From Octopus vulgaris (lineage: Eukaryota): 64,000 nucleotides of DNA. The stretch's first letter is position 1; every line of letters starts with the position of its first letter. The DNA lies in assembly GCA_951406725.2 (NCBI GenBank), contig OX597830.1, positions 23,312,001 to 23,376,000 on the forward strand, written 5' to 3'. The translations under genes were made by a program, and so were the position numbers. Positions 7,790-58,325 of this stretch are shown one piece after another. Below the pieces are notes generated by a model, which made no database searches, was not told where the DNA came from, and saw only the letters and a program-made list of their open reading frames with translations.

Positions 7790-8325
7790 CATCATAGTAT
7801 CGTCCTTTTGAAATATCTATAAAACCGTCAAAAGCTTGTTTATTTTTGTGTTTTTTGATTTATTATTATTGTTGCTTAATATATTTTACTAAAATTACTG
7901 TTTATCTGATCAAATTCATCCTATGGTTGCGGAACTGTTTCCGGAGAGAAACGCAATTATTCAGGATGATAATGCACCAATTCACACAGCTAAAGTTGTT
8001 ACTGAATGGCACGGGGAACATTCTAGTGAAGTTGAACATGTTATCTGGCCACCACAGTCCCCAGATCTCAATATTATTGAACATTTATGGGGCATTTTAG
8101 AAAAACAAGTAAGGAGTCGATATCCTCCACCATCATCACTACAAGAACTGGTGACTGTTTTAGCTGAAGAAAGGAGAAAAATTCCTTTGGAAACAATTCA
8201 AACTTTGTATGAGTTCATACCTCGTAGAATTCAAGCTGTAATTACAACCAAAGGCGGTCCTACTCCATATTAAAATAAACTTGCTTGAAATTTTAAGGTG
8301 TTACCATTATTTTGTCCAAACCCTG
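7379..8325 (+). mobile_element. Internally deleted Tc1-family DNA transposon
   Basis: Left end TA|CAGGGGTGGGACAAA (7379) and right end TTTGTCCAAACCCTG|TA (8325) are imperfect TIRs with TA flanks. A transposase 3' fragment lies inside; the left interior is replaced by GATA repeats. Confidence 0.65.
7923..8273 (+). pseudogene. Tc1-type transposase C-terminal fragment (DD36E spacing)
   Basis: QDDNAPIH...WPPQSPDLNIIEHLW...IPRRIQAVITTKGGPTPY; 36 residues between the second catalytic D and E. Confidence 0.9.
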
Positions 8326-18000: not shown

Positions 18001-18055
<55 letters not shown>

Positions 18056-18104
18056 AAACAAGTCAAAAATAGAAAATGCTAAGATGATTTTATAGTGAAT
18101 CTTT

Positions 18105-18142
18105 CAGTACCGGTTTCGGTCATTTTGAGACCTTTTCAACTG
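18105..18142 (-). ncRNA. Minimal type I hammerhead ribozyme (U3-A8 covariant core) in PLE 3' region
   Basis: Minus strand: CAG-TTGAAAA-GGTC tcaaaat GACC-GAA-ACCGGT-A-CTG. All three stems are intact, the cleavage triplet is GUA, and it is on the same strand as the ORFs. Confidence 0.85.
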
Positions 18143-18623
18143 TAACGATTAAATAATTAAATTTAGAAAAATTAGAAGAAAAGTTTTTTTTAAAAGAATA
18201 TTTCTGTAGTAGTGTTCAGATATAAGTAGCATTCTGCCTTTCTCTGACTCCCTTGTTTGCACTTGTGTGTTCGAGGTCGTTTTGAGTTCTTGGTAGGATA
18301 GGTGAAGAATAATGAGGCTAATGTGGAGAGGGGGTGGGGAAATCTGGGAATGCCTTAATGGTCGTATTTTGAATGGTCAGTGGCTGACAGTAGTCGCAGT
18401 TCAATTCAGGAATTGTTTATGGAATTTGCGTAGGCGTTTTACTGAAAGACATTAGTGACAAGGTTAAGGGGTGGAAGGTGGAGAAGTAGAAGAAGAAGAA
18501 GATGGCGATGTTGATGATGATGATGATGAAGAAGAAGAAGAAGAAGAAGAAGGAGAAGGAGAAGATGGTGGTGATGATGGTGGTGATGATGATGACGACG
18601 ATGATGATGATAATGATGATGAT

Positions 18624-18656
<33 letters not shown>

Positions 18657-18782
18657 AAAAACAGAGAAGGGAGAATATGAATGGGTGTAAGTTTAGCTGT
18701 GATGGGGCTGATTAGTAATGGATTCTATGGAGTGTAATATTTGTGTGTGTATATATTTCTTTTATTCTAAAGTTGAGGTATA

Positions 18783-21107
18783 TTAATTGTTTGTCGTAGA
18801 CCCGTTAAGAAGTGGCTTGTATTTTGTAATAAAGAGATTTTCTTTACTTATTCGTTGTCTCGAGGTTGTATCGTCCCTAAATTGGTAGAGGGGGAAAATT
18901 CTGAAGTTTGGTGTTTTTTTGTTGGCGCAAGTATCTATGTGTTGGCTAAAAGCTATTTCTCTGTTTTGGGGAATTTTTATCTGGGATCTGTGCAGGGCCA
19001 TTCGTTTACGCAAACCATTTTTTGTTTGGCCTATGTACTGCTCTTGACACCCGGAGCAGGTTAGTGAGTATATTAGGTTCTCCGAAGCACATGTGAAGTT
19101 GCTTTTCACTGTAAACCGTTGTCCCTGTTTGAACGAGAACTCTGATCCCTCAATTAGATAGTCGCATATCCCGCAATTGGGTCTTCCACATTTTTTTACT
19201 GTCGGCTTCTGTGTTGAAGAGTGAATTCGGGCTTGTGTAAGGAGACTTTTCATGGATCTAGGCTGTCTTTTGCTTTTTATGATCGTGTGTGTTTGGAGGA
19301 TTGTGTTCATTCTGTGGTCTTTTTTTAGGAGGGGTATGTTGTGGAGGATGGTGTCGAAGGCTTCGTTATTGAGAGGGTTGTGTGTGAAGATGTATGGTAA
19401 GGCTTTTGGTTGTAAGTTTTTCTTTGATTTGGGATGTCTCAGTTCCTTGATGTTAAGTTGAAGGGCACGTTGAATGCACTTGTCAATAAGTGAAGGTGGA
19501 TAGTTCCTGGTGATAAGGGTATCTTTTAGTTCTTGTAGTCGTGTGTCTCTGGTGTTTGCGTTAGAGACTATAGTGCATATCCTTTTTGCTAGATTGAAGG
19601 GGATATTCATCCTGGTGTGTCTGGGGTGGCATGAATTGAATGGAAGATATTGCTTAGAGTCTGTAGGCTTATAGTATATGTCTGTTTCTATTATATTATT
19701 AGTTTTCTTAATGAGGATATCGAGGAAGGGGAGTTGTTGTTGGCTATATTCCATCGTGAATTGGATGTTTACGTCCAGTCCGTTTAAAATTTTCTGGAAT
19801 TCTATGAGTTTTTCTATATTTTTATGCCAAAGGATGAAACAGTCATCTAGATATCTCTTCCAGTTGTTTTCTATGTAGATGGAGAAAGGGCTGCCATATC
19901 TTTCTAGAACCTTACGATACAGACTGATCTCTAGGTATCCTATGACTAGGTTGGCAAAGGAGGGGGCCATTCGTGTACCCATCGCAGTCCCCGATTTTTG
20001 TCGGTAGAAGTTGTCATTGAAGGCGAAGAAGTTATTTTCCAGGATGAATTTAACCCCTTCTATCACAAATTCTTTTTTGATGTGGTGTGGTAGTTCGTTG
20101 GCGTGATTCTCTAGCCAGAATTGGATTGCCTCTAGTCCTAGGTTGTGGGGGATATTGGAGTAGAGGTTGACTACATCGAAGGATACCAGTATGGTGTTTT
20201 TGTTTATAGTATTCGGTAGGTGATTGAGCATATCTAAGTCGTCCCTTATATAGCTTTTGACATGTTTGAGGAGTGGTTTTAACAGGGTGTCTAAAAAGTT
20301 ACTGAGGCGGTGGGTTTCGCATGCGGGACCTGCTATTATGGGTCTCAATTTGAGGTCATTAGGATTAGGGACTTTAATTATTTTGTCTGTAGCTATCTTG
20401 CATGCGTTGCTTATTTTTTCACTTTTGTGGATCTTAGGTATACCGTAGAATTGGCTAGTTTTACTTGTGAAATTGGTCATATAATCATATTCTTTGTCGG
20501 TGAGCCCTGCTTTGTATGGGTTTAATATGGATTTTAGTTCCCTCATTATTTTTTGTTGACTGTAGTTTTGTGCCTTTTCATAGTATGTTGTGTCTTCCAG
20601 CATAGAAAGTACCAAAGTTATGTAAAATGTCGTATCCATTAAGACAACAGCACTCCCTTTATCGGCCTCTTTGATTGTTATTGTTTTATCTTGTTTTAAT
20701 TTGTTCAACTCAGCCCATTCTTTTTTGCTGAAGTTTGGTTTGTGTTTTTGTTTGTGCATATGTTGATATGGGTAATTAGATATGTGGTCACAGAAATCAT
20801 CAAGTGTTTTGTTCTTACCTTTCGAGGGGGTGTAGTTACTCCTATTTCTGGCTAACGATTCGTCCTCGTTGTATTTATCGTATAGCTCCTCAGTAAGTCT
20901 TAATTTTCTGCAGAATTCTGCGATGTCTTCTTTCATTTCGTTGTAGTTGGGGTGTTGTGGGGTGGGTGTAAACTTGAGTCCTTTGGAAAGTATGTTAATT
21001 TGGTTTGCTGTTAGTTCCTTGTGAGTTAGATTGATAATTTTTATTACTTTTGGTTCCTCCTGCTTGTTTGGTGCTATCTTGTGTCTCTGTGTTTGCGTAT
21101 TGGGTCT
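18783..21107 (-). CDS. Penelope-like reverse transcriptase + GIY-YIG endonuclease (ORF2; frame open 57 codons upstream of the ATG at 20936)
   Basis: RT motifs ADKG, FYGIPKIHK, LRPII, SFDVVNLYSNIP, GTAMGTRMAPSFANL, RYLDD, LPFLD, DIYYKPT. Linker CGRPNCGIC; endonuclease LIYSLTCSGCQEQYIGQT...RMALH. The upstream in-frame extension contains the PLE-typical IINLT...ILSKGLKFTPTP. Confidence 0.95.
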   Translation of the reverse strand, partial: RPNTQTQRHKIAPNKQEEPKVIKIINLTHKELTANQINILSKGLKFTPTPQHPNYNEMKEDIAEFCRKLRLTEELYDKYNEDESLARNRSNYTPSKGKNKTLDDFCDHISNYPYQHMHKQKHKPNFSKKEWAELNKLKQDKTITIKEADKGSAVVLMDTTFYITLVLSMLEDTTYYEKAQNYSQQKIMRELKSILNPYKAGLTDKEYDYMTNFTSKTSQFYGIPKIHKSEKISNACKIATDKIIKVPNPNDLKLRPIIAGPACETHRLSNFLDTLLKPLLKHVKSYIRDDLDMLNHLPNTINKNTILVSFDVVNLYSNIPHNLGLEAIQFWLENHANELPHHIKKEFVIEGVKFILENNFFAFNDNFYRQKSGTAMGTRMAPSFANLVIGYLEISLYRKVLERYGSPFSIYIENNWKRYLDDCFILWHKNIEKLIEFQKILNGLDVNIQFTMEYSQQQLPFLDILIKKTNNIIETDIYYKPTDSKQYLPFNSCHPRHTRMNIPFNLAKRICTIVSNANTRDTRLQELKDTLITRNYPPSLIDKCIQRALQLNIKELRHPKSKKNLQPKALPYIFTHNPLNNEAFDTILHNIPLLKKDHRMNTILQTHTIIKSKRQPRSMKSLLTQARIHSSTQKPTVKKCGRPNCGICDYLIEGSEFSFKQGQRFTVKSNFTCASENLIYSLTCSGCQEQYIGQTKNGLRKRMALHRSQIKIPQNREIAFSQHIDTCANKKTPNFRIFPLYQFRDDTTSRQRISKENLFITKYKPLLNGSTTNN

Positions 21108-22234
21108 AAAAAATGAATGCGGTGGTTGGGACGGTAGCTATTATATAGTTGTTCTTTGTTGATGTGGGGTCTCCTGTTGTGATTTATGGTGTGTGTTCTT
21201 GGAGCAGTATTGAGGAGAGCATCCCGATATCCCATATTCGGGTGTGGTGTTCTAGGAGGCCTTCGTTGGTAATCATTGTAAGTGGAGTAGGTTTGTTGTG
21301 CATGGTTGTTTAACCGGTTTATGGGGCGGAGATTTCGTTGGTAACTCTTTTGGGTGGGGATAAGGTTGCAGTGTCTATGCTGTGGGTGTTGATTTATCCT
21401 TTCTCTGCTTGAAGTGGGGGTATTCCTGATATTGTAACGCTGGCTGTTTACAGAGTTAGGGTTAGGTCCTGTATTCTTTTTTTGAAAGTAGTGAAGGTTC
21501 CGATTTTTAGACAGGTGTGTATCGGTGTTTGGGTGTTGTTTTGGTTTTCTTATTTTCTGGAAAGGGTTGTTGGAGGCGTGCTCTGTTTGAAAGACGGCTT
21601 CATAGTCTGAGAACCAAATGGCGTTTTTCTCCCAGCGTTGGAGAGATTTTAGTTCTTCTTTTTCACAGTCCTCTTTCCATAGTTTGGAGAACTTCTCTTG
21701 ATCTGGGCCTTGGGTCATTTTGCGAATTTCTTCGTTGATATCTTCATCGGTGGATTTTATTTTATCCTCATTCGTTTGGGCCCTCAATTTCAGAAGTTCT
21801 ATTTCCATTTTCATTTTTTCCAGTGCCATTCTCTCCCTGAGGTGTCTTTGTGTTTCAGGTTCCTCTGTAATAGCTTTGAACTGGAATTTACGTGGGAGGA
21901 TTAACGGGGTCCGGTTGAGCCATTTTTCGTATATATCCGCTTTGTTGTTGTTTTGGATCATCTTCCAAAAGGCGAACTTTCTATCTCTGAGTGATTTGTT
22001 CCATTGTGGGATTATGTGTTGTTTCATTTGGTATGTTGTTAGAGTATTGATCCCATATAATGTCGCGTTTGGAGGTCCTTGGTTAGCGTTGTTAGAGAAA
22101 AATGTTCTAATTGTTTCGCATAAGTTTCCAAGGTTTTCGACAATTTCGGAGGTTGTATTTTTCGTATCTGTTTCCTCATTGTTCTCTCGATTGGGTTGAT
22201 GTGTCAAGTCGAATTTGTTCAAAAATGTTGACAA
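21074..22234 (-). CDS. PLE ORF1: predicted coiled-coil region plus N/Q/R/P-rich disordered C-terminus (5'-truncated)
   Basis: 386 uninterrupted codons, frame open up to the (TA)n boundary; the track's start codon is TTG. Heptad-like E/K-rich segment LRERMALEKMKMEIELLKLRAQTNEDKIK. Overlaps the ORF2 frame. Confidence 0.75.
   Translation of the reverse strand: MSTFLNKFDLTHQPNRENNEETDTKNTTSEIVENLGNLCETIRTFFSNNANQGPPNATLYGINTLTTYQMKQHIIPQWNKSLRDRKFAFWKMIQNNNKADIYEKWLNRTPLILPRKFQFKAITEEPETQRHLRERMALEKMKMEIELLKLRAQTNEDKIKSTDEDINEEIRKMTQGPDQEKFSKLWKEDCEKEELKSLQRWEKNAIWFSDYEAVFQTEHASNNPFQKIRKPKQHPNTDTHLSKNRNLHYFQKKNTGPNPNSVNSQRYNIRNTPTSSRERINQHPQHRHCNLIPTQKSYQRNLRPINRLNNHAQQTYSTYNDYQRRPPRTPHPNMGYRDALLNTAPRTHTINHNRRPHINKEQLYNSYRPNHRIHFLDPIRKHRDTR
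21107..21113 (-). promoter_or_regulatory. Candidate -1 ribosomal frameshift slippery site U UUU UUA
   Basis: ORF1 frame reads CAT TTT TTA GAC; the -1 frame TTT TTT AGA CCC continues without a stop into RT. The -1 frame has TAA TAG stops only ~8 codons upstream. Confidence 0.75.
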
Positions 22235-22255
22235 ATTTGTGTTGATTTTCTTGAG

Positions 22256-22293
<38 letters not shown>

Positions 22294-23131
22294 TCTCACA
22301 ACGCATTCGTCGGTTAAGGTTCTATGACAAAAGATACCTGTCTAGTGTGTCGCGCACAGGGACTGAACCCGAAACTGCGTAGTTACAAAGCGTGCTTTCT
22401 AACCACACAACCACGCTCGTCAAAACCCCAAACTGTTTTCGTAGTTAAATGGTCGAACACGTTGATGTAATTTTCACAGCATGAATCCTCAAAAAAATGT
22501 GGTTATCCGTTCAATATCGACTACAAAGGATTTATAAAATTCCAAAATGGATAAACTACTAAATTTGAATATCAAATTATTATTATCCTATTGTAAACGA
22601 ATTATCTCTCGATATCAGGAGCTATATCGTGATATCACATCAGAAGGAATTCCGGATATTAGTTTTCCGGGCTCATGGTTTTTGTAAATCTCGAAACCTA
22701 TTTTGAAATTAGTCCACAAAACTTAAATGCTTTGTTGTATGGCCCCATCATTGATTCTGGTCTTTGTGTTTTGTTTTTCAACAATATTGGGAAAAATGTA
22801 CCATTTACTTGAGTGTTCTAGCTTGCTTGGAGATAAAGAAATAAAAATAACAAAATAATAAAGATATTTTTACGATACGAAAACAAACAAACAGAAAAAG
22901 AATTTAATATCCTTTATATTTTTTATATATTCTACGGTTTAGCGTTTTTAAAAAAATATTTTTTAGCTGAATTATGATCAATTGATGCTTAGATTCTAAG
23001 CCTTTGGTATTAGCAAGAAGAGAAAGATAAACCAATTCAATACTTGTCGTTTCAAACCTAGATCGTATTTGTAGCCCAAGAGAGCCATGTAAATCAGCCA
23101 TTTTTTTTGTCTTCTTATTTCCCTTTAACGT

Positions 23132-24135: not shown

Positions 24136-24540
24136 AGGCGGCGAGCTGGCAGAAACGTTAGCGCGCCGGGGGAAATGCTTAGCCGTTACGTTCTGAGTTC
24201 AAATTCCGCCGTAGTCGACTTTGCTTTTCATCCTTTCGGGGTCGATAAATTAAGTACCAGTAGCGCACTGGAGTCGATGTAATCGACTTAATCCGTTTAT
24301 CTGTCCTTGTTTGTCCTCTCTGTGTTTAGCCCCTTGTGGGCAATAAAGAAATAGGTATTTCGTCTACCGCTACGTTCTGAGTTCAAATTCCGCCGAGGTC
24401 GACTTTGCCTTTCATCCTTTCGGGGTCGATAAATTAAGTACCAGTTGCGCACTGGAGTCGATGTAATCGACTTAATCCGTTTGTCTGTCCTTGTTTGTCC
24501 TCTCTGTGTTTAACCCCTTGTGGGTAGTAAAGAAATAAGA
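24136..24540 (+). mobile_element. SINE family C head-to-tail array
   Basis: One headed unit followed by a headless ~180-bp unit starting GGTATTTCGTCT. Confidence 0.85.
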
Positions 24541-25121: not shown

Positions 25122-25570
25122 AAGGCGACGAGCTGGCAGAAACGTTAAAGACACCGGATGAAATGCTCAGCGGTATTTCGTCTGCCGTTACGTTCTGAGT
25201 TCAAATTCTGCCGAGGTCGACTTTGCCATTCATCCTTTCGGGGTCGATTAAATAAGTACCAGTTACGCACTGGGGTCGATATAATCGACTTAATCCGTTT
25301 GTCTGTCCTCGTTTGTCCCCTCTGTGTTTAGCCCCTTGTGGGTAGTAAAGAAATAGGTATTTCGTCTGTCGCTACGTTCTGAGTTCAAATTCTGCCGAGG
25401 TCGACTTTGCCATTCATCCTTTCGGGGTCGATAAATTAAGTACCAGTTACGCACTGGAGTCGATATAATCGACTTAATCCGTTTGTCTGTCCTCGTTTGT
25501 CCCCTCTGTGTTTAGCCCCTTGTGGGTAGTAAAGAAATAGGTATTTTATTGTGGGCAATAAAGAAATAAG
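25122..25570 (+). mobile_element. SINE family C head-to-tail array
   Basis: Same architecture; the units share private variants (TCTGCCGAGG, GCCATTCATCC, CCTCGTTTG). Confidence 0.85.
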
Positions 25571-29991: not shown

Positions 29992-30659
29992 TATTACATA
30001 CTTTAGAGAACTAAAAACTTTTACCCCCTGAATACGTGCTGCTAAAATTGTTCTACTAATATAGCCGTGTGTGTTTCATGCCATCAAACGTAGTAAGTAA
30101 ATTAACCTTAAATGTGACCAACAATCATAATAATTGCATTTATCTTATAATGACGTAACCGACAACCGACCCAGTCAAAACTTAAATTCACAGTGACGAC
30201 TAACATCACCAACAACAACACTTAACATGACAGATTTGATGCCCCACGGGGATCTGAGTAGGGGAAAGAGGAATGCTAAATGCTGATTGGCTATAATAAG
30301 GGCAGGGCAAGACTATTATCCCATGAGTTAGCACGTTTTCCGACTAAAGATTACTGTCACAAAAATTACGGTTAAAAGAACAGTGTGTATGTCTTAAGGG
30401 ATGTTTGAAACAATAAAAAAGCAGCATTTATTAAATTACTGTCATATTTGTAAGAATTAAACTTTAATTTTCCACGTTTCGAATCGGTTCTAAGAGGAGC
30501 TCGTCAGAAGCCGCTCCAGAATGAAATGTGGGCGAAGTGTTTCTTAAAATAGAAGGTCCCTCGCTGGTTCCTACGTTCGTACGAATGTATGTATGTATGT
30601 ATGTATGTATGTATGTATGTATGTATGTATGTATGTATGTATGTATGTATGTATGTATG

Positions 30660-30686
<27 letters not shown>

Positions 30687-30691
<5 letters not shown>

Positions 30692-31028
30692 GCTGGACTC
30701 AAGAGTCATCTTCGTAGTCATAAAACGAGACAGGTGAGTGACAACCTGGCCACTGGTGGTGGTGTAACACGCCATACTAATCAGATCTGTCGGGCATGTG
30801 GAAGAGAGTGTAATTCGGTAGGAGGACTTAAACGACATGCAAAGGTACATGAAGCCCAGTTACAACTACAGCTGGCTATTACCAGTAAAGGTTTTAGTTG
30901 CCAATTTTGTACAAGCTATTGTAGATCTTTAGCTGGGCTAAAAAGTCACATTCGATCACAGCACCAGTAACAGTTAAGCTTCGTGCAATGGCCATACTCG
31001 ATAACGAGGGGGCAGCCATAATAATAAT
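30687..31028 (+). mobile_element. RTE-like LINE 3' end encoding tandem C2H2 zinc fingers, embedded in (TATG)n
   Basis: KAGLKSHLRSH...CRACGRECNSVGGLKRHAKVH...FSCQFCTSYCRSLAGLKSHIRSQHQ*, then a short UTR hairpin (CTCG ataa CGAG) and a (TAA) tail. Confidence 0.7.
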
Positions 31029-42704: not shown

Positions 42705-43420
42705 GTTAAGTCGATTAAATCGACCCCAGTGTTCAACTGGTACTTATTTTTATCGACCCCCAGTGCGTAACTGGTACTTAATTTATCGACCCCGAAAGGA
42801 TGAAAGGCAAAGTCGACCTCGGCGGAATTTGAACTCAGAACGTAGCAGCAGACAAAATACCTATTTGTTTACTACCCACAAGGGGCTAAACGCAGAGGAG
42901 ACAAACAAGGACAGACAGACCGATTAAGACGATTATATCGACCCCCAGTGCGTAACTGATACTTAATTTATCGACCCCGAAAGGATGAAAGGCAAAGTCA
43001 ACCTCGGCGGAATTTGAACTCAGAACGTAGCGGCAGACAAAATACCTATTTCTTTACTACCCACAAGGGGCTAAACGCAGAGGAGAAAACAAGGACAGAC
43101 AAAGTGCGGGATTAAGTCGATTACATCGACCCCAATCAGAACGTGTCACTGGTACGATTATTTAACCGACTATCGACCCCGAAAGGATGAAAGGCAAAGT
43201 CAACCTCGGCGGAATTTGAACTCAGAACGTAGCGGCAGACAAAATACCTATTTCTTTACTACCCACAAGGGGCTAAACGCAGAGGGAGAAAACAAGGACA
43301 GACAAAGGGATTAAGTCGATTACATCGACCCCAATGTGTCACTGGTACTTATTTAACCGACAGACGAAATACCGCTAAGTATCTCGCCCGGCCTGCTAAC
43401 GATTCTCCGAGCTTGCTGCT
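42705..43420 (-). mobile_element. SINE family C tandem array (~4 units)
   Basis: Repeated ~180-bp units CCCGAAAGGATGAAAGGCAAAGTC...CCCACAAGGGGCTAAAC. Confidence 0.88.
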
Positions 43421-52202: not shown

Positions 52203-52625
52203 GGCGGCGAGCTGGCAGAAACGTTAGCATGCCGGGCGAAATGCTTAGCGGGATTTCGTCTGCCGCTACGTTCTGAGTTCAAATTCTACCGATGTCGACT
52301 TTGCCTTTCATCCTTTCAGGGTCGATAAATAAGTACCAGTTACGCACTGGGGGTCGATATAATCGACTTCATCCGTTTGTCTGTCCTTGTTTGTCCCTCC
52401 TGTGTTTCGCCCGTTTGCGGGCAGTAAAGAAATAGGTATTTCGTCTGCCGTTACGCTCTGAGTTCAAATTCCGCCGAGTTTGACTTTGCCTTTCGTCCTT
52501 TCGGGGTCGATAAATTAAGTACCAGTTACGCACTGGGGTCGATATAATCGACTTAATCCGTTTGTCTGTCCTTGTTTTTTCCCCCCTATGTTTAGCCCCT
52601 TGTGGTCAATAAAGAAATAACAATA
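52203..52625 (+). mobile_element. SINE family C dimer
   Basis: One headed unit plus one headless unit. Confidence 0.85.
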
Positions 52626-57727: not shown

Positions 57728-58325
57728 TTCTTTTCTGCCCACAAGGGGCTAAACATAGAGGGGACAAACAAGGACAGACAAAGGGATGAAATCGATTACA
57801 TCGATCCCAGTGCGAAACTGGTACTTTATTTATCGACCCCGAAAGGATGAAAGGCAAAGTCGACCTCGGCGGAATTTGAACTCAGAACGTAGCGGCAGAC
57901 GAAATACCCATTTCTTTACTACCCACAAGGGGCTAAACACAGAGAGGACAAACAAGGACAGACAAACGGATTAAGTCGATTATATCGATCCCAGTGCGTA
58001 ACTGGTACTTATTTAATTGACCCCGAAAGGATGAAAGGTAAAGTCGACCTCGGCGGAATTTGAACTCACAACGTAACGACTGACGAAATACCTATTTCTT
58101 TATTACCCACATGGGGCTAAACACAGAGGGGACAAACAAGGACAGACATAGGTATTAAGTCGATTACATCGACCCCAGTGCGTAACTGGTACTTATTTAA
58201 TCGACCCCGAAAGGATGAAAGGCAAAGTCGACCTCGGCGGAATTTGAACTCACAACGTAACGGCAGACGAAATACGGCTACGCATTTCGCCCGGCGTGCT
58301 AATGTTTCTGCCAGCTCGCTGCCTT
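57728..58325 (-). mobile_element. SINE family C tandem array (3 units)
   Basis: ~180-bp units; only the rightmost carries the full tRNA-like head. Confidence 0.88.

Follow-up and report, generated by a model that had tools for sequence, protein, structure and literature searches.

The window analysed here, a stretch of 64,000 nucleotides (nt) of the Octopus vulgaris genome (contig OX597830.1 of assembly GCA_951406725.2, positions 23,312,001 to 23,376,000, forward strand), contains a single copy of a Penelope-like element (PLE), which is truncated at its 5' end, encodes an endonuclease (EN+), is Neptune-like, and is inserted in (TA)n (18052..22256 of the window, minus strand, 4205 nt). Its reverse transcriptase (RT) frame, open reading frame 2 (ORF2), is preceded by a second frame, ORF1, which we regard with high confidence as a genuine, 5'-truncated ORF1 of this element in a layout of the gag-pol type. 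ORF2 lies in the -1 frame relative to ORF1, the two frames overlap by 64 nt, and the overlap spans an in-phase slippery heptamer, U_UUU_UUA (21107..21113, minus strand), which is read as Phe-Leu in ORF1 and is the predicted -1 site into the RT frame. This junction was missed in a first-pass annotation made from the letters of the window. The simplest reading, and very likely the right one, is programmed -1 frameshifting at U_UUU_UUA, a slip that we infer from sequence comparison.

On a full-length copy, ribosomes would initiate at the ORF1 methionine, and most of them would terminate at the ORF1 UAG, giving an abundant protein of ~410 amino acids (aa) with an N-terminal heptad segment, a three-helix core, and a basic, disordered tail. 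A minority would slip by -1 at the heptamer and produce an ORF1-RT-GIY-YIG fusion of ~1,170 aa. The window copy is devoid of a start codon, and its translation by itself is improbable.

The -1 offset at the junction is not a lesion, because contigs cross it without gaps and nine of ten related loci have a slippery site. The rival explanation is a single ORF split into two frames when a homopolymer lost a T, through mutation or assembly error; the junction is indeed a run of six T, and canonical EN+ PLEs are single-ORF elements according to the available text of PMC8557442 (Craig et al. 2021). Four of 24 sequencing runs, namely two raw-read and two contig sets, were aligned to positions 20500-22400, and neither contig set had a gap row at the junction, which is spanned ungapped by contigs with 1/321 and 30/216 mismatches. 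Among 87 loci fetched with an RT alignment, nine matched the ORF1 profile; in 9/9 of these the RT frame is offset by -1 and an in-phase heptamer, U6A or U6G, is present. Two of the loci (L015 and L016) belong to a single degraded family, and L001 is interrupted by an internal stop. When a tenth locus (L089) with an ORF1 match is included, the -1 offset recurs in 10/10 and the heptamer is kept in 9/10. No fused protein is present among the 120 RT homologues listed, all of which are 612-803 aa long in a search permitting up to 1372 aa; word-based searches for fused long homologues (689-2000 aa and 829-2365 aa) found none, which is weak evidence. Among the 150 ORF1 matches listed, a single one bears RT residues. 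It is a spliced gene model of Mytilus in which the ORF1 tail is followed by a jump into ORF2; a stand-alone protein of 383 aa belongs to the same cluster. An ORF broken in this way is already largely refuted and very improbable.

The heptamer is restricted to the overlap, where it is found at 7/140 in-phase positions, versus 0/2409 elsewhere in ORF1 (window and six loci). At the protein level, Phe-Leu occurs within the last 45 aa of 69/89 homologues of at least 290 aa, as compared with 7/89 and 8/89 in upstream control windows and a maximum of 13 in shuffles. The -1 frame begins 0-1 codon ahead of the heptamer in four junctions. A different explanation would be independent synthesis of ORF2, whether through reinitiation downstream of the ORF1 stop, a start codon other than AUG, or splicing, with an incidental heptamer. 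This would agree with the short overlap, with the introns that are possible in PLEs (available text of PMC8557442), and with gene predictors bridging both frames by an intron. It is opposed by the confinement of the heptamer, by 9/9 junctions lacking a Met ahead of the conserved N-terminal ORF2 motif (in the window, the first Met of ORF2 is aa 68, downstream of that motif), and by 7/7 junctions lacking a consensus GT donor near the slip site. Separate synthesis of ORF2 is considered unlikely, and frameshifting at U_UUU_UUA is preferred.

That ORF1 is carried by the PLE, as the first-pass annotation had proposed, is borne out by all loci with DNA: in each of them, ORF1 is found 5' of one and the same RT clade. 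Among them are tandem arrays, in which RT stop, hammerhead, and ORF1 Met follow in this order inside a few hundred bases. A phmmer search of ORF1 against 1.84 billion representatives gave 531 matches at E<=1e-3; those listed are 82-609 aa long, and named members come from Pinctada and Mytilus. The chance probability of 393 stop-free codons at the given composition is ~8e-10. A non-coding ORF, or one of an unrelated neighbouring element, could be argued from the lack of any Pfam, PDB-sequence, or atlas assignment; it is refuted by the loci with ORF1 5' of RT, has hundreds of homologues and a ratio of nonsynonymous to synonymous rates (dN/dS) well under 1 against it, and retains a negligible probability. 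Conservation and purifying selection of ORF1 are supported by these sequence comparisons.

Several points weigh against a conserved, programmed frameshift. The two raw-read runs, which bear the same species label as the best-matching run, give almost no coverage of 20500-22400. L089 has the -1 layout and no canonical heptamer, and the Phe-Leu footprint is missing from 20/89 long homologues. Unlike canonical -1 sites, with their stem-loop or pseudoknot 5-9 nt downstream, the window site has no predicted stable RNA structure behind it (minimum free energy (MFE) -0.7; 161/200 shuffles fold equally well), nor was loop-downstream pairing found behind it. The ORF1 matches examined were 150 of the 531. 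The dN/dS on the L009/L014 pair (0.147 for ORF1 and 0.117 for the RT part), which does not bear out the near-neutral evolution proposed as a refuting outcome in the first-pass annotation, comes from that one pair with dS near saturation (2.1). Within the window family, the signal of selection is weak: 26 variants in ORF1, taken from the 40 of 149 rows shown, comprise 10 synonymous, 16 missense, and no nonsense changes (p 0.03).

Further scans of genome contigs gave no additional junction. At the L089 junction and in the tails of P0060, P0061, and P0015, Tyr-Phe or Asp-Phe replaces Phe-Leu near the ORF1 end; these are possibly candidate non-canonical slip sites, like G_GAU_UUU of pea enation mosaic virus (PEMV).

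The ORF1 stop, UAG followed by C (21074..21076, minus strand), is located exactly 10 sense codons after the slippery site, and the data on related sequences suggest a striking, testable stop-spacing rule that may be new. The distance from Phe-Leu to the stop in 69 homologues is below 10 codons in none, exactly 10 in 23, 11 in six, and 12-43 in 40, whereas a geometric null predicts ~30 under 10 and ~2 at 10. On DNA, the spacings in the window and nine related loci are 10 (window), 19, 17, 12, 10, 10, 12, 10, 10, and 20; L017, whose contig is without the ORF1 core, has a spacing of 10. A scan of all RT frames revealed three more distant loci, L058 (U6A, 10 codons), L044 (U6A, 11), and L073 (A6C, 10). 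The upstream ORFs in these loci give no match to the window ORF1 profile, and the loci fall outside the RT clade of the window (FastTree, 37 rows), with L044 and L058 as sisters.

As a tentative explanation, drawn from samples that are related, the terminating ribosome may itself be the roadblock that stimulates the -1 slip. At stop codons, disomes accumulate and leave footprints of 58 nt and 61 nt, which correspond to pairs of 28-nt footprints with 2 or 5 nt between them, and the 61-nt form turns into the 58-nt form upon movement of the trailing ribosome (available text of PMC7784341). From these footprint sizes, the A sites would be 30 or 33 nt apart. Ten sense codons put the stop 33 nt from UUA, and in the 61-nt state UUU/UUA would therefore be occupied by the trailing ribosome. 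While one ribosome pauses at the ORF1 stop, its follower would be held with UUU in the P site and UUA in the A site, and the hindered move into the tight 30-nt disome would be resolved as a -1 slip. This move is a translocation, the step to which -1 slips are generally assigned. A C at position +4 weakens termination, as stated in the available text of PMC5829715; C follows the stop in 5/8 loci with a spacing of 10-11 versus 3/16 others (p 0.065), which is a hint only.

The chances are about even that the frameshift is real while the 10-codon spacing reflects something other than a queue, such as ancestry, constraint on the residue that the -1 frame encodes across the stop, a C-terminal signal made of Phe-Leu and 10 further residues, or space for a stimulator that binds protein. 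On a quickly built ORF1 tree, the exact-10 label falls into clusters (nine changes versus 20.1 when shuffled; 20 of 24 exact-10 rows within one 27-row clade), so the spacing rows are not independent. The 40 homologues at 12-43 codons point in the same direction, as do L009 and L014 (both 12) and L018 (20), which are likewise without strong structure. Several observations are, however, at odds with such origins. The spacer residues have no common sequence, and the distance from the slip site to the ORF2 motif varies (23-68 codons overall, 23-32 among exact-10 loci), so the ORF1 stop is not pinned to ORF2. A spacing of 10-11 recurs in three loci whose ORF1s are unrelated, L058, L044, and L073, the last with another heptamer, A_AAA_AAC; and no homologue falls below 10 codons where about 30 would be expected. 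The exact-10 label persists over end branches of ~1.2 changes per site.

Loop-downstream pairing of at least 6 nt occurs in 0/8 loci with a spacing of 10-11 codons. A clean split between structure and spacing is nevertheless contradicted by a 6-bp hairpin in L011 and by the lack of strong structure in L009, L014, and L018; MFE z-scores fail to separate the groups because pseudoknot loci also score only -0.1 to -2.0. Pseudoknots are found in a separate group of 11 loci with A_AAA_AAC and a long ORF1 (L038, L047, L050, L054, L061, L062, L063, L065, L066, L078, and L087). These have, where the RT frame starts, a dual-frame overlap of 186-210 codons and a common conserved, covarying stem, and in 9/11 there is loop-downstream pairing of 6-10 nt, that is, a pseudoknot; a regular-expression search for an EN motif in the five of them used in the tree found none. 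L044 bears an EN, and L058 is a related PLE (L058:1417-3345, L044:1-942); the ORF1s of both end in a GDSN-motif domain, behind which come U6A and, after 10 or 11 codons, a stop. This domain has no Pfam match and is presumably SGNH/GDSL esterase-like. In L073:1200-1290, an A_AAA_AAC site and a stop at 10 codons are followed by AACCC-like repeats, which resemble reverse-complement telomeric repeats. On a wider view, for which we see somewhat less than an even chance, several PLE lineages would slip by -1 independently of RNA structure through a 10-codon queue, and ORF1 would be the split-off N-terminal domain of single-ORF PLEs, made in excess.

The ORF1 remnant comprises 393 codons and TAG (21074..22255, minus strand). 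The first-pass annotation had recognized the long open frame, with a count of at least 386 stop-free codons; from stop to stop there are 393. It had also placed the truncation at (TA)n, which agrees with the two nearest homologues: these have 18-19 extra N-terminal residues beginning at a Met, so the window ORF1 is without its start and without ~18-19 N-terminal codons, and its upstream stop is created at the (TA)n junction (22257-22291). Both sequence blocks quoted in that annotation are present, at aa 82-97 and 109-124. They lie in a conserved core (aa 62-228; 21572..22072, minus strand) composed of a long helix, an IxPRKF loop, and two long helices, with W85, R92, W112, P121, E132, D170, W193, E201, S204, and W208 being near-invariant. 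AlphaFold2, run with 95 sequences, gave a confident helical core at aa ~80-240 (pLDDT 91-98 in blocks of 10), with high-confidence helices at 64-114, 134-180, and 184-225, and pLDDT <50 across aa 255-380. The E/K-rich stretch (32% E/K at aa 130-225) and the N/Q/R/P/H-rich tail (53% in the final 150 aa) are as described earlier. Concerning the proposed coiled coil with a basic disordered tail, the tail stands (aa 240-381, N/R/P/H/Q-rich; 21113..21538, minus strand), with a net charge of +24 for aa 226-393 and net positive tails in 60/62 homologues (mean +11). The E/K stretch, by contrast, is modelled inside the three-long-helix core, and the better heptad segment of the family is further N-terminal, partly missing from the window copy and present in full-length homologues.

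Concerning the nature of the ORF1 protein (ORF1p), no Pfam family is common to more than 1/95 members, in line with the earlier statement that no named domain is recognized. A PDB sequence search returned generic coiled coils only, at profile positions ~10-95; Foldseek against PDB and viral structures gave no match to the core at E<=0.001, the ESM Atlas no usable match, and viral contigs no relative. The best VIA fold match of the core is a syntaxin-derived three-helix scaffold (Z 8.4, rmsd 6.3, 124 aligned residues). Single-ORF PLEs, which we take to be Penelope/Poseidon-like, have an N-terminal domain whose model gives overlapping generic fold matches (best Z 8.5), and neither of the two models shows a new fold. 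From the IP motif onward, 86-88 columns of the ORF1 core match, weakly and collinearly, this domain in 14-15 single-ORF loci (score 25.7, E 0.0013, and probability 18%, as compared with scores of 9.8 for the reversed control and at most 17.0 in 60 block shuffles), and a repeat comparison gave E 0.0028 and probability 11%. Both models, compared without superposition, have the same order of helix, Pro-turn, helix, and helix; the shared pattern is a long helix, a Pro with a 3-residue turn, and two long helices. The single-ORF domain differs in being in frame with RT and in having no basic tail. Homology of the two is somewhat favoured. When the ORF1 profile was compared with the ORF1s of the A6C group, of L044/L058, and of L073 and with the L007-type N-terminus, scores were not above reversed controls, barring a short IPR motif.

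A Gag-like function, that is, an oligomerising, RNA-packaging, or condensate-forming role, had been suggested for ORF1p before, and the frameshift layout of the gag-pol type lends support to a position like that of Gag; the role itself we infer by analogy. With a slight preference, ORF1p may be taken for a surplus RNA-binding or chaperone part of the ribonucleoprotein, a scaffold role argued by analogy from position, frameshift, and basic tail. There is no retroviral zinc knuckle CX2CX4HX4C in ORF1, which has three isolated Cys and no CX2C. Comparison with the capsid (CA) fold gave only generic helical matches among those listed, and, with regard to LINE-1 ORF1p (trimeric coiled coil, RRM, and CTD), no RRM-like sheet is predicted because the model has no strand of at least three residues.

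The remainder of the element supports its assignment. ORF2 is open over 784 aa from stop to stop (18783..21137, minus strand) and contains GLKF, DKG, RT, a linker, and, at the C terminus, a GIY-YIG domain with CCHH. The RVT_1 match has 34 bits, exceeding the cutoff of 29.6; GxKF-type and DKG motifs were located, the YLDD of the RT is at 19853, and a CX4CX2C linker is found at 19190 (aa 650), in agreement with the CX2-5CxxC linker between RT and EN of EN+ PLEs. The GIY-YIG match (PF01541, aa 688-775) has an E value of 7e-4 and 20.3 bits, under the cutoff of 22.6; two Cys in the endonuclease core and two His are present. An Athena/Coprina-type (EN-) PLE, defined by an RT ORF without endonuclease, does not agree with the GIY-YIG domain in ORF2. 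The 3' untranslated region (18052..18782, minus strand) has an internal trinucleotide microsatellite (18482-18656) and, near the 3' end of the element, a hammerhead-ribozyme-like motif (18089..18153, minus strand; HH9, E 0.034, 22.9 bits, gathering threshold of 52 not reached). Clearer hammerhead-like cores are present at the equivalent place in L001, L009, L011, L014, and L015. The window core (18109-18139, minus strand) reads UUGAAAA where CUGAnGA is expected, U3 and A8 replacing C3 and G8, a substitution that would preserve the 3-8 pair of the hammerhead. It is followed by the ACCGGT palindrome seen in related loci.

The flanks are (AT)24 at the 3' end (18004..18051, no strand) and (TA)17 at the 5' truncation point (22257..22291, no strand), in agreement with a (TA)n insertion preference, as judged from this single insertion. 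In 20/24 sequencing runs listed (10 studies, four organism labels), 60-73% of the words of the element are found, and summed contig depth in run X9 declines toward its 5' end, as 5' truncation predicts. No run containing the element is recorded as RNA; run X3 may be RNA. By its features the element may be of either the Neptune or the Nematis type, the RT tree comprising the fetched loci only. Elsewhere in the window, there are a DDE_3 (Tc1/mariner-type) transposase fragment (7893-8273, plus strand, E 1.9e-13), a C2H2-like zinc-finger fragment under Pfam cutoffs (30548-30970, plus strand), and a dispersed, SINE-like repeat of 184-185 nt in short tandem arrays (24183-24537, 25172-25546, 42752-43355, 52253-52619, and 57728-58275), in which ARAGORN found no tRNA. 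Animal PLEs also occur in bacterial metagenome-assembled genome records (L001-L007, L089; RT matches labelled Thiodiazotropha and Solemya symbiont), most likely as host contamination.

Athena and Terminon PLEs, in the 2017 work of Arkhipova et al., reportedly have an ORF1 separated by a frameshift. By sequence, the 4205-nt element carries the Neptune/Nematis-type marks given in the available text of PMC8557442: RT followed by C-terminal GIY-YIG, CX2-5CxxC linker, CCHH, and DKG, as well as a weak hammerhead-like match near the 3' end, a (TA)n target, and, in related loci, partial tandem arrays. These elements are described there as single-ORF, whereas the window and 10 related loci have two overlapping ORFs, with a -1 slippery site in the window and nine of them. 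According to the Fig. 1 legend of PMC8557442, a frameshift with pseudoknot can set the ORF1 of a PLE apart. The clade bearing this mark could include Neptune. Such PLEs resemble the window element in an upstream ORF1 of coiled-coil character and a frameshift into RT; they differ from it in that it encodes an endonuclease and shows no pseudoknot behind its site. In the available part of the PMC8557442 supplement, 'slippery' does not occur and ORF1 is mentioned solely for two Chlamys families. A Fundulus Neptune has two non-overlapping ORFs and no frameshift in the available text of PMC12602865, and the corresponding parts of PMC5408684, PMC3846280, and PMC6962438 contain nothing on an EN+ PLE frameshift or stop spacing. 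Searches of the available full-text literature, figures and Arkhipova 2006 and 2017 lying outside them, found no programmed frameshift of an EN+ PLE and no 10-codon stop rule. We read the window element as a member of an EN+ PLE group whose ORF1 is conserved and which very likely uses a -1 site of the gag-pol type, a combination that may be new.

Retroviral gag-pol offers the nearest parallel for the site itself: the -1 frameshift of HIV-1 gag-pol uses U_UUU_UUA, the same heptamer in the same phase, with a non-enzymatic ORF ahead of a start-less polymerase. Unlike gag-pol, the window element is without downstream stem-loop, zinc knuckle, long terminal repeats, protease, and integrase. LINE-1 ORF1p is comparable by analogy only, as an abundant upstream protein with N-terminal heptads and basic, RNA-binding character; there is no sequence match, and LINE-1 ORF2 is not known to be reached by -1 frameshifting. 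An influence of the 0-frame stop on efficiency is described in the available text for PEMV (PMC4737148) and SARS-CoV-2 (PMC8168617). In PEMV, 3 nt separate the stop from the slip site, an RNA element is required, and the authors speculate on stacking behind a terminating ribosome; in SARS-CoV-2, the effect is ascribed to pseudoknot refolding. In both, the stop is 0-5 codons from the site, beside or within the RNA stimulator, whereas in the PLE homologues it is never under 10 codons away, the mode is exactly 10, and often no structure is visible. The available parts of PMC7544508 and PMC8310308 hold no closer precedent for a queue-triggered slip.

Since EN+ PLEs are described as single-ORF elements, a conserved ORF1 with a frameshift in a widespread clade changes their protein annotation and their expression in vitro. 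Constructs with RT only would miss the natural N-terminus, and gene predictors already insert invented introns at the junction. A possible origin of ORF1 is indicated by the weak resemblance of its core to the domain at the N terminus of single-ORF PLEs. If the queue were true, the output of RT-endonuclease would follow ribosome load and termination speed, and these elements would provide an example from nature of -1 frameshifting that is stimulated by ribosome collision, with neither an RNA nor a protein as stimulator.

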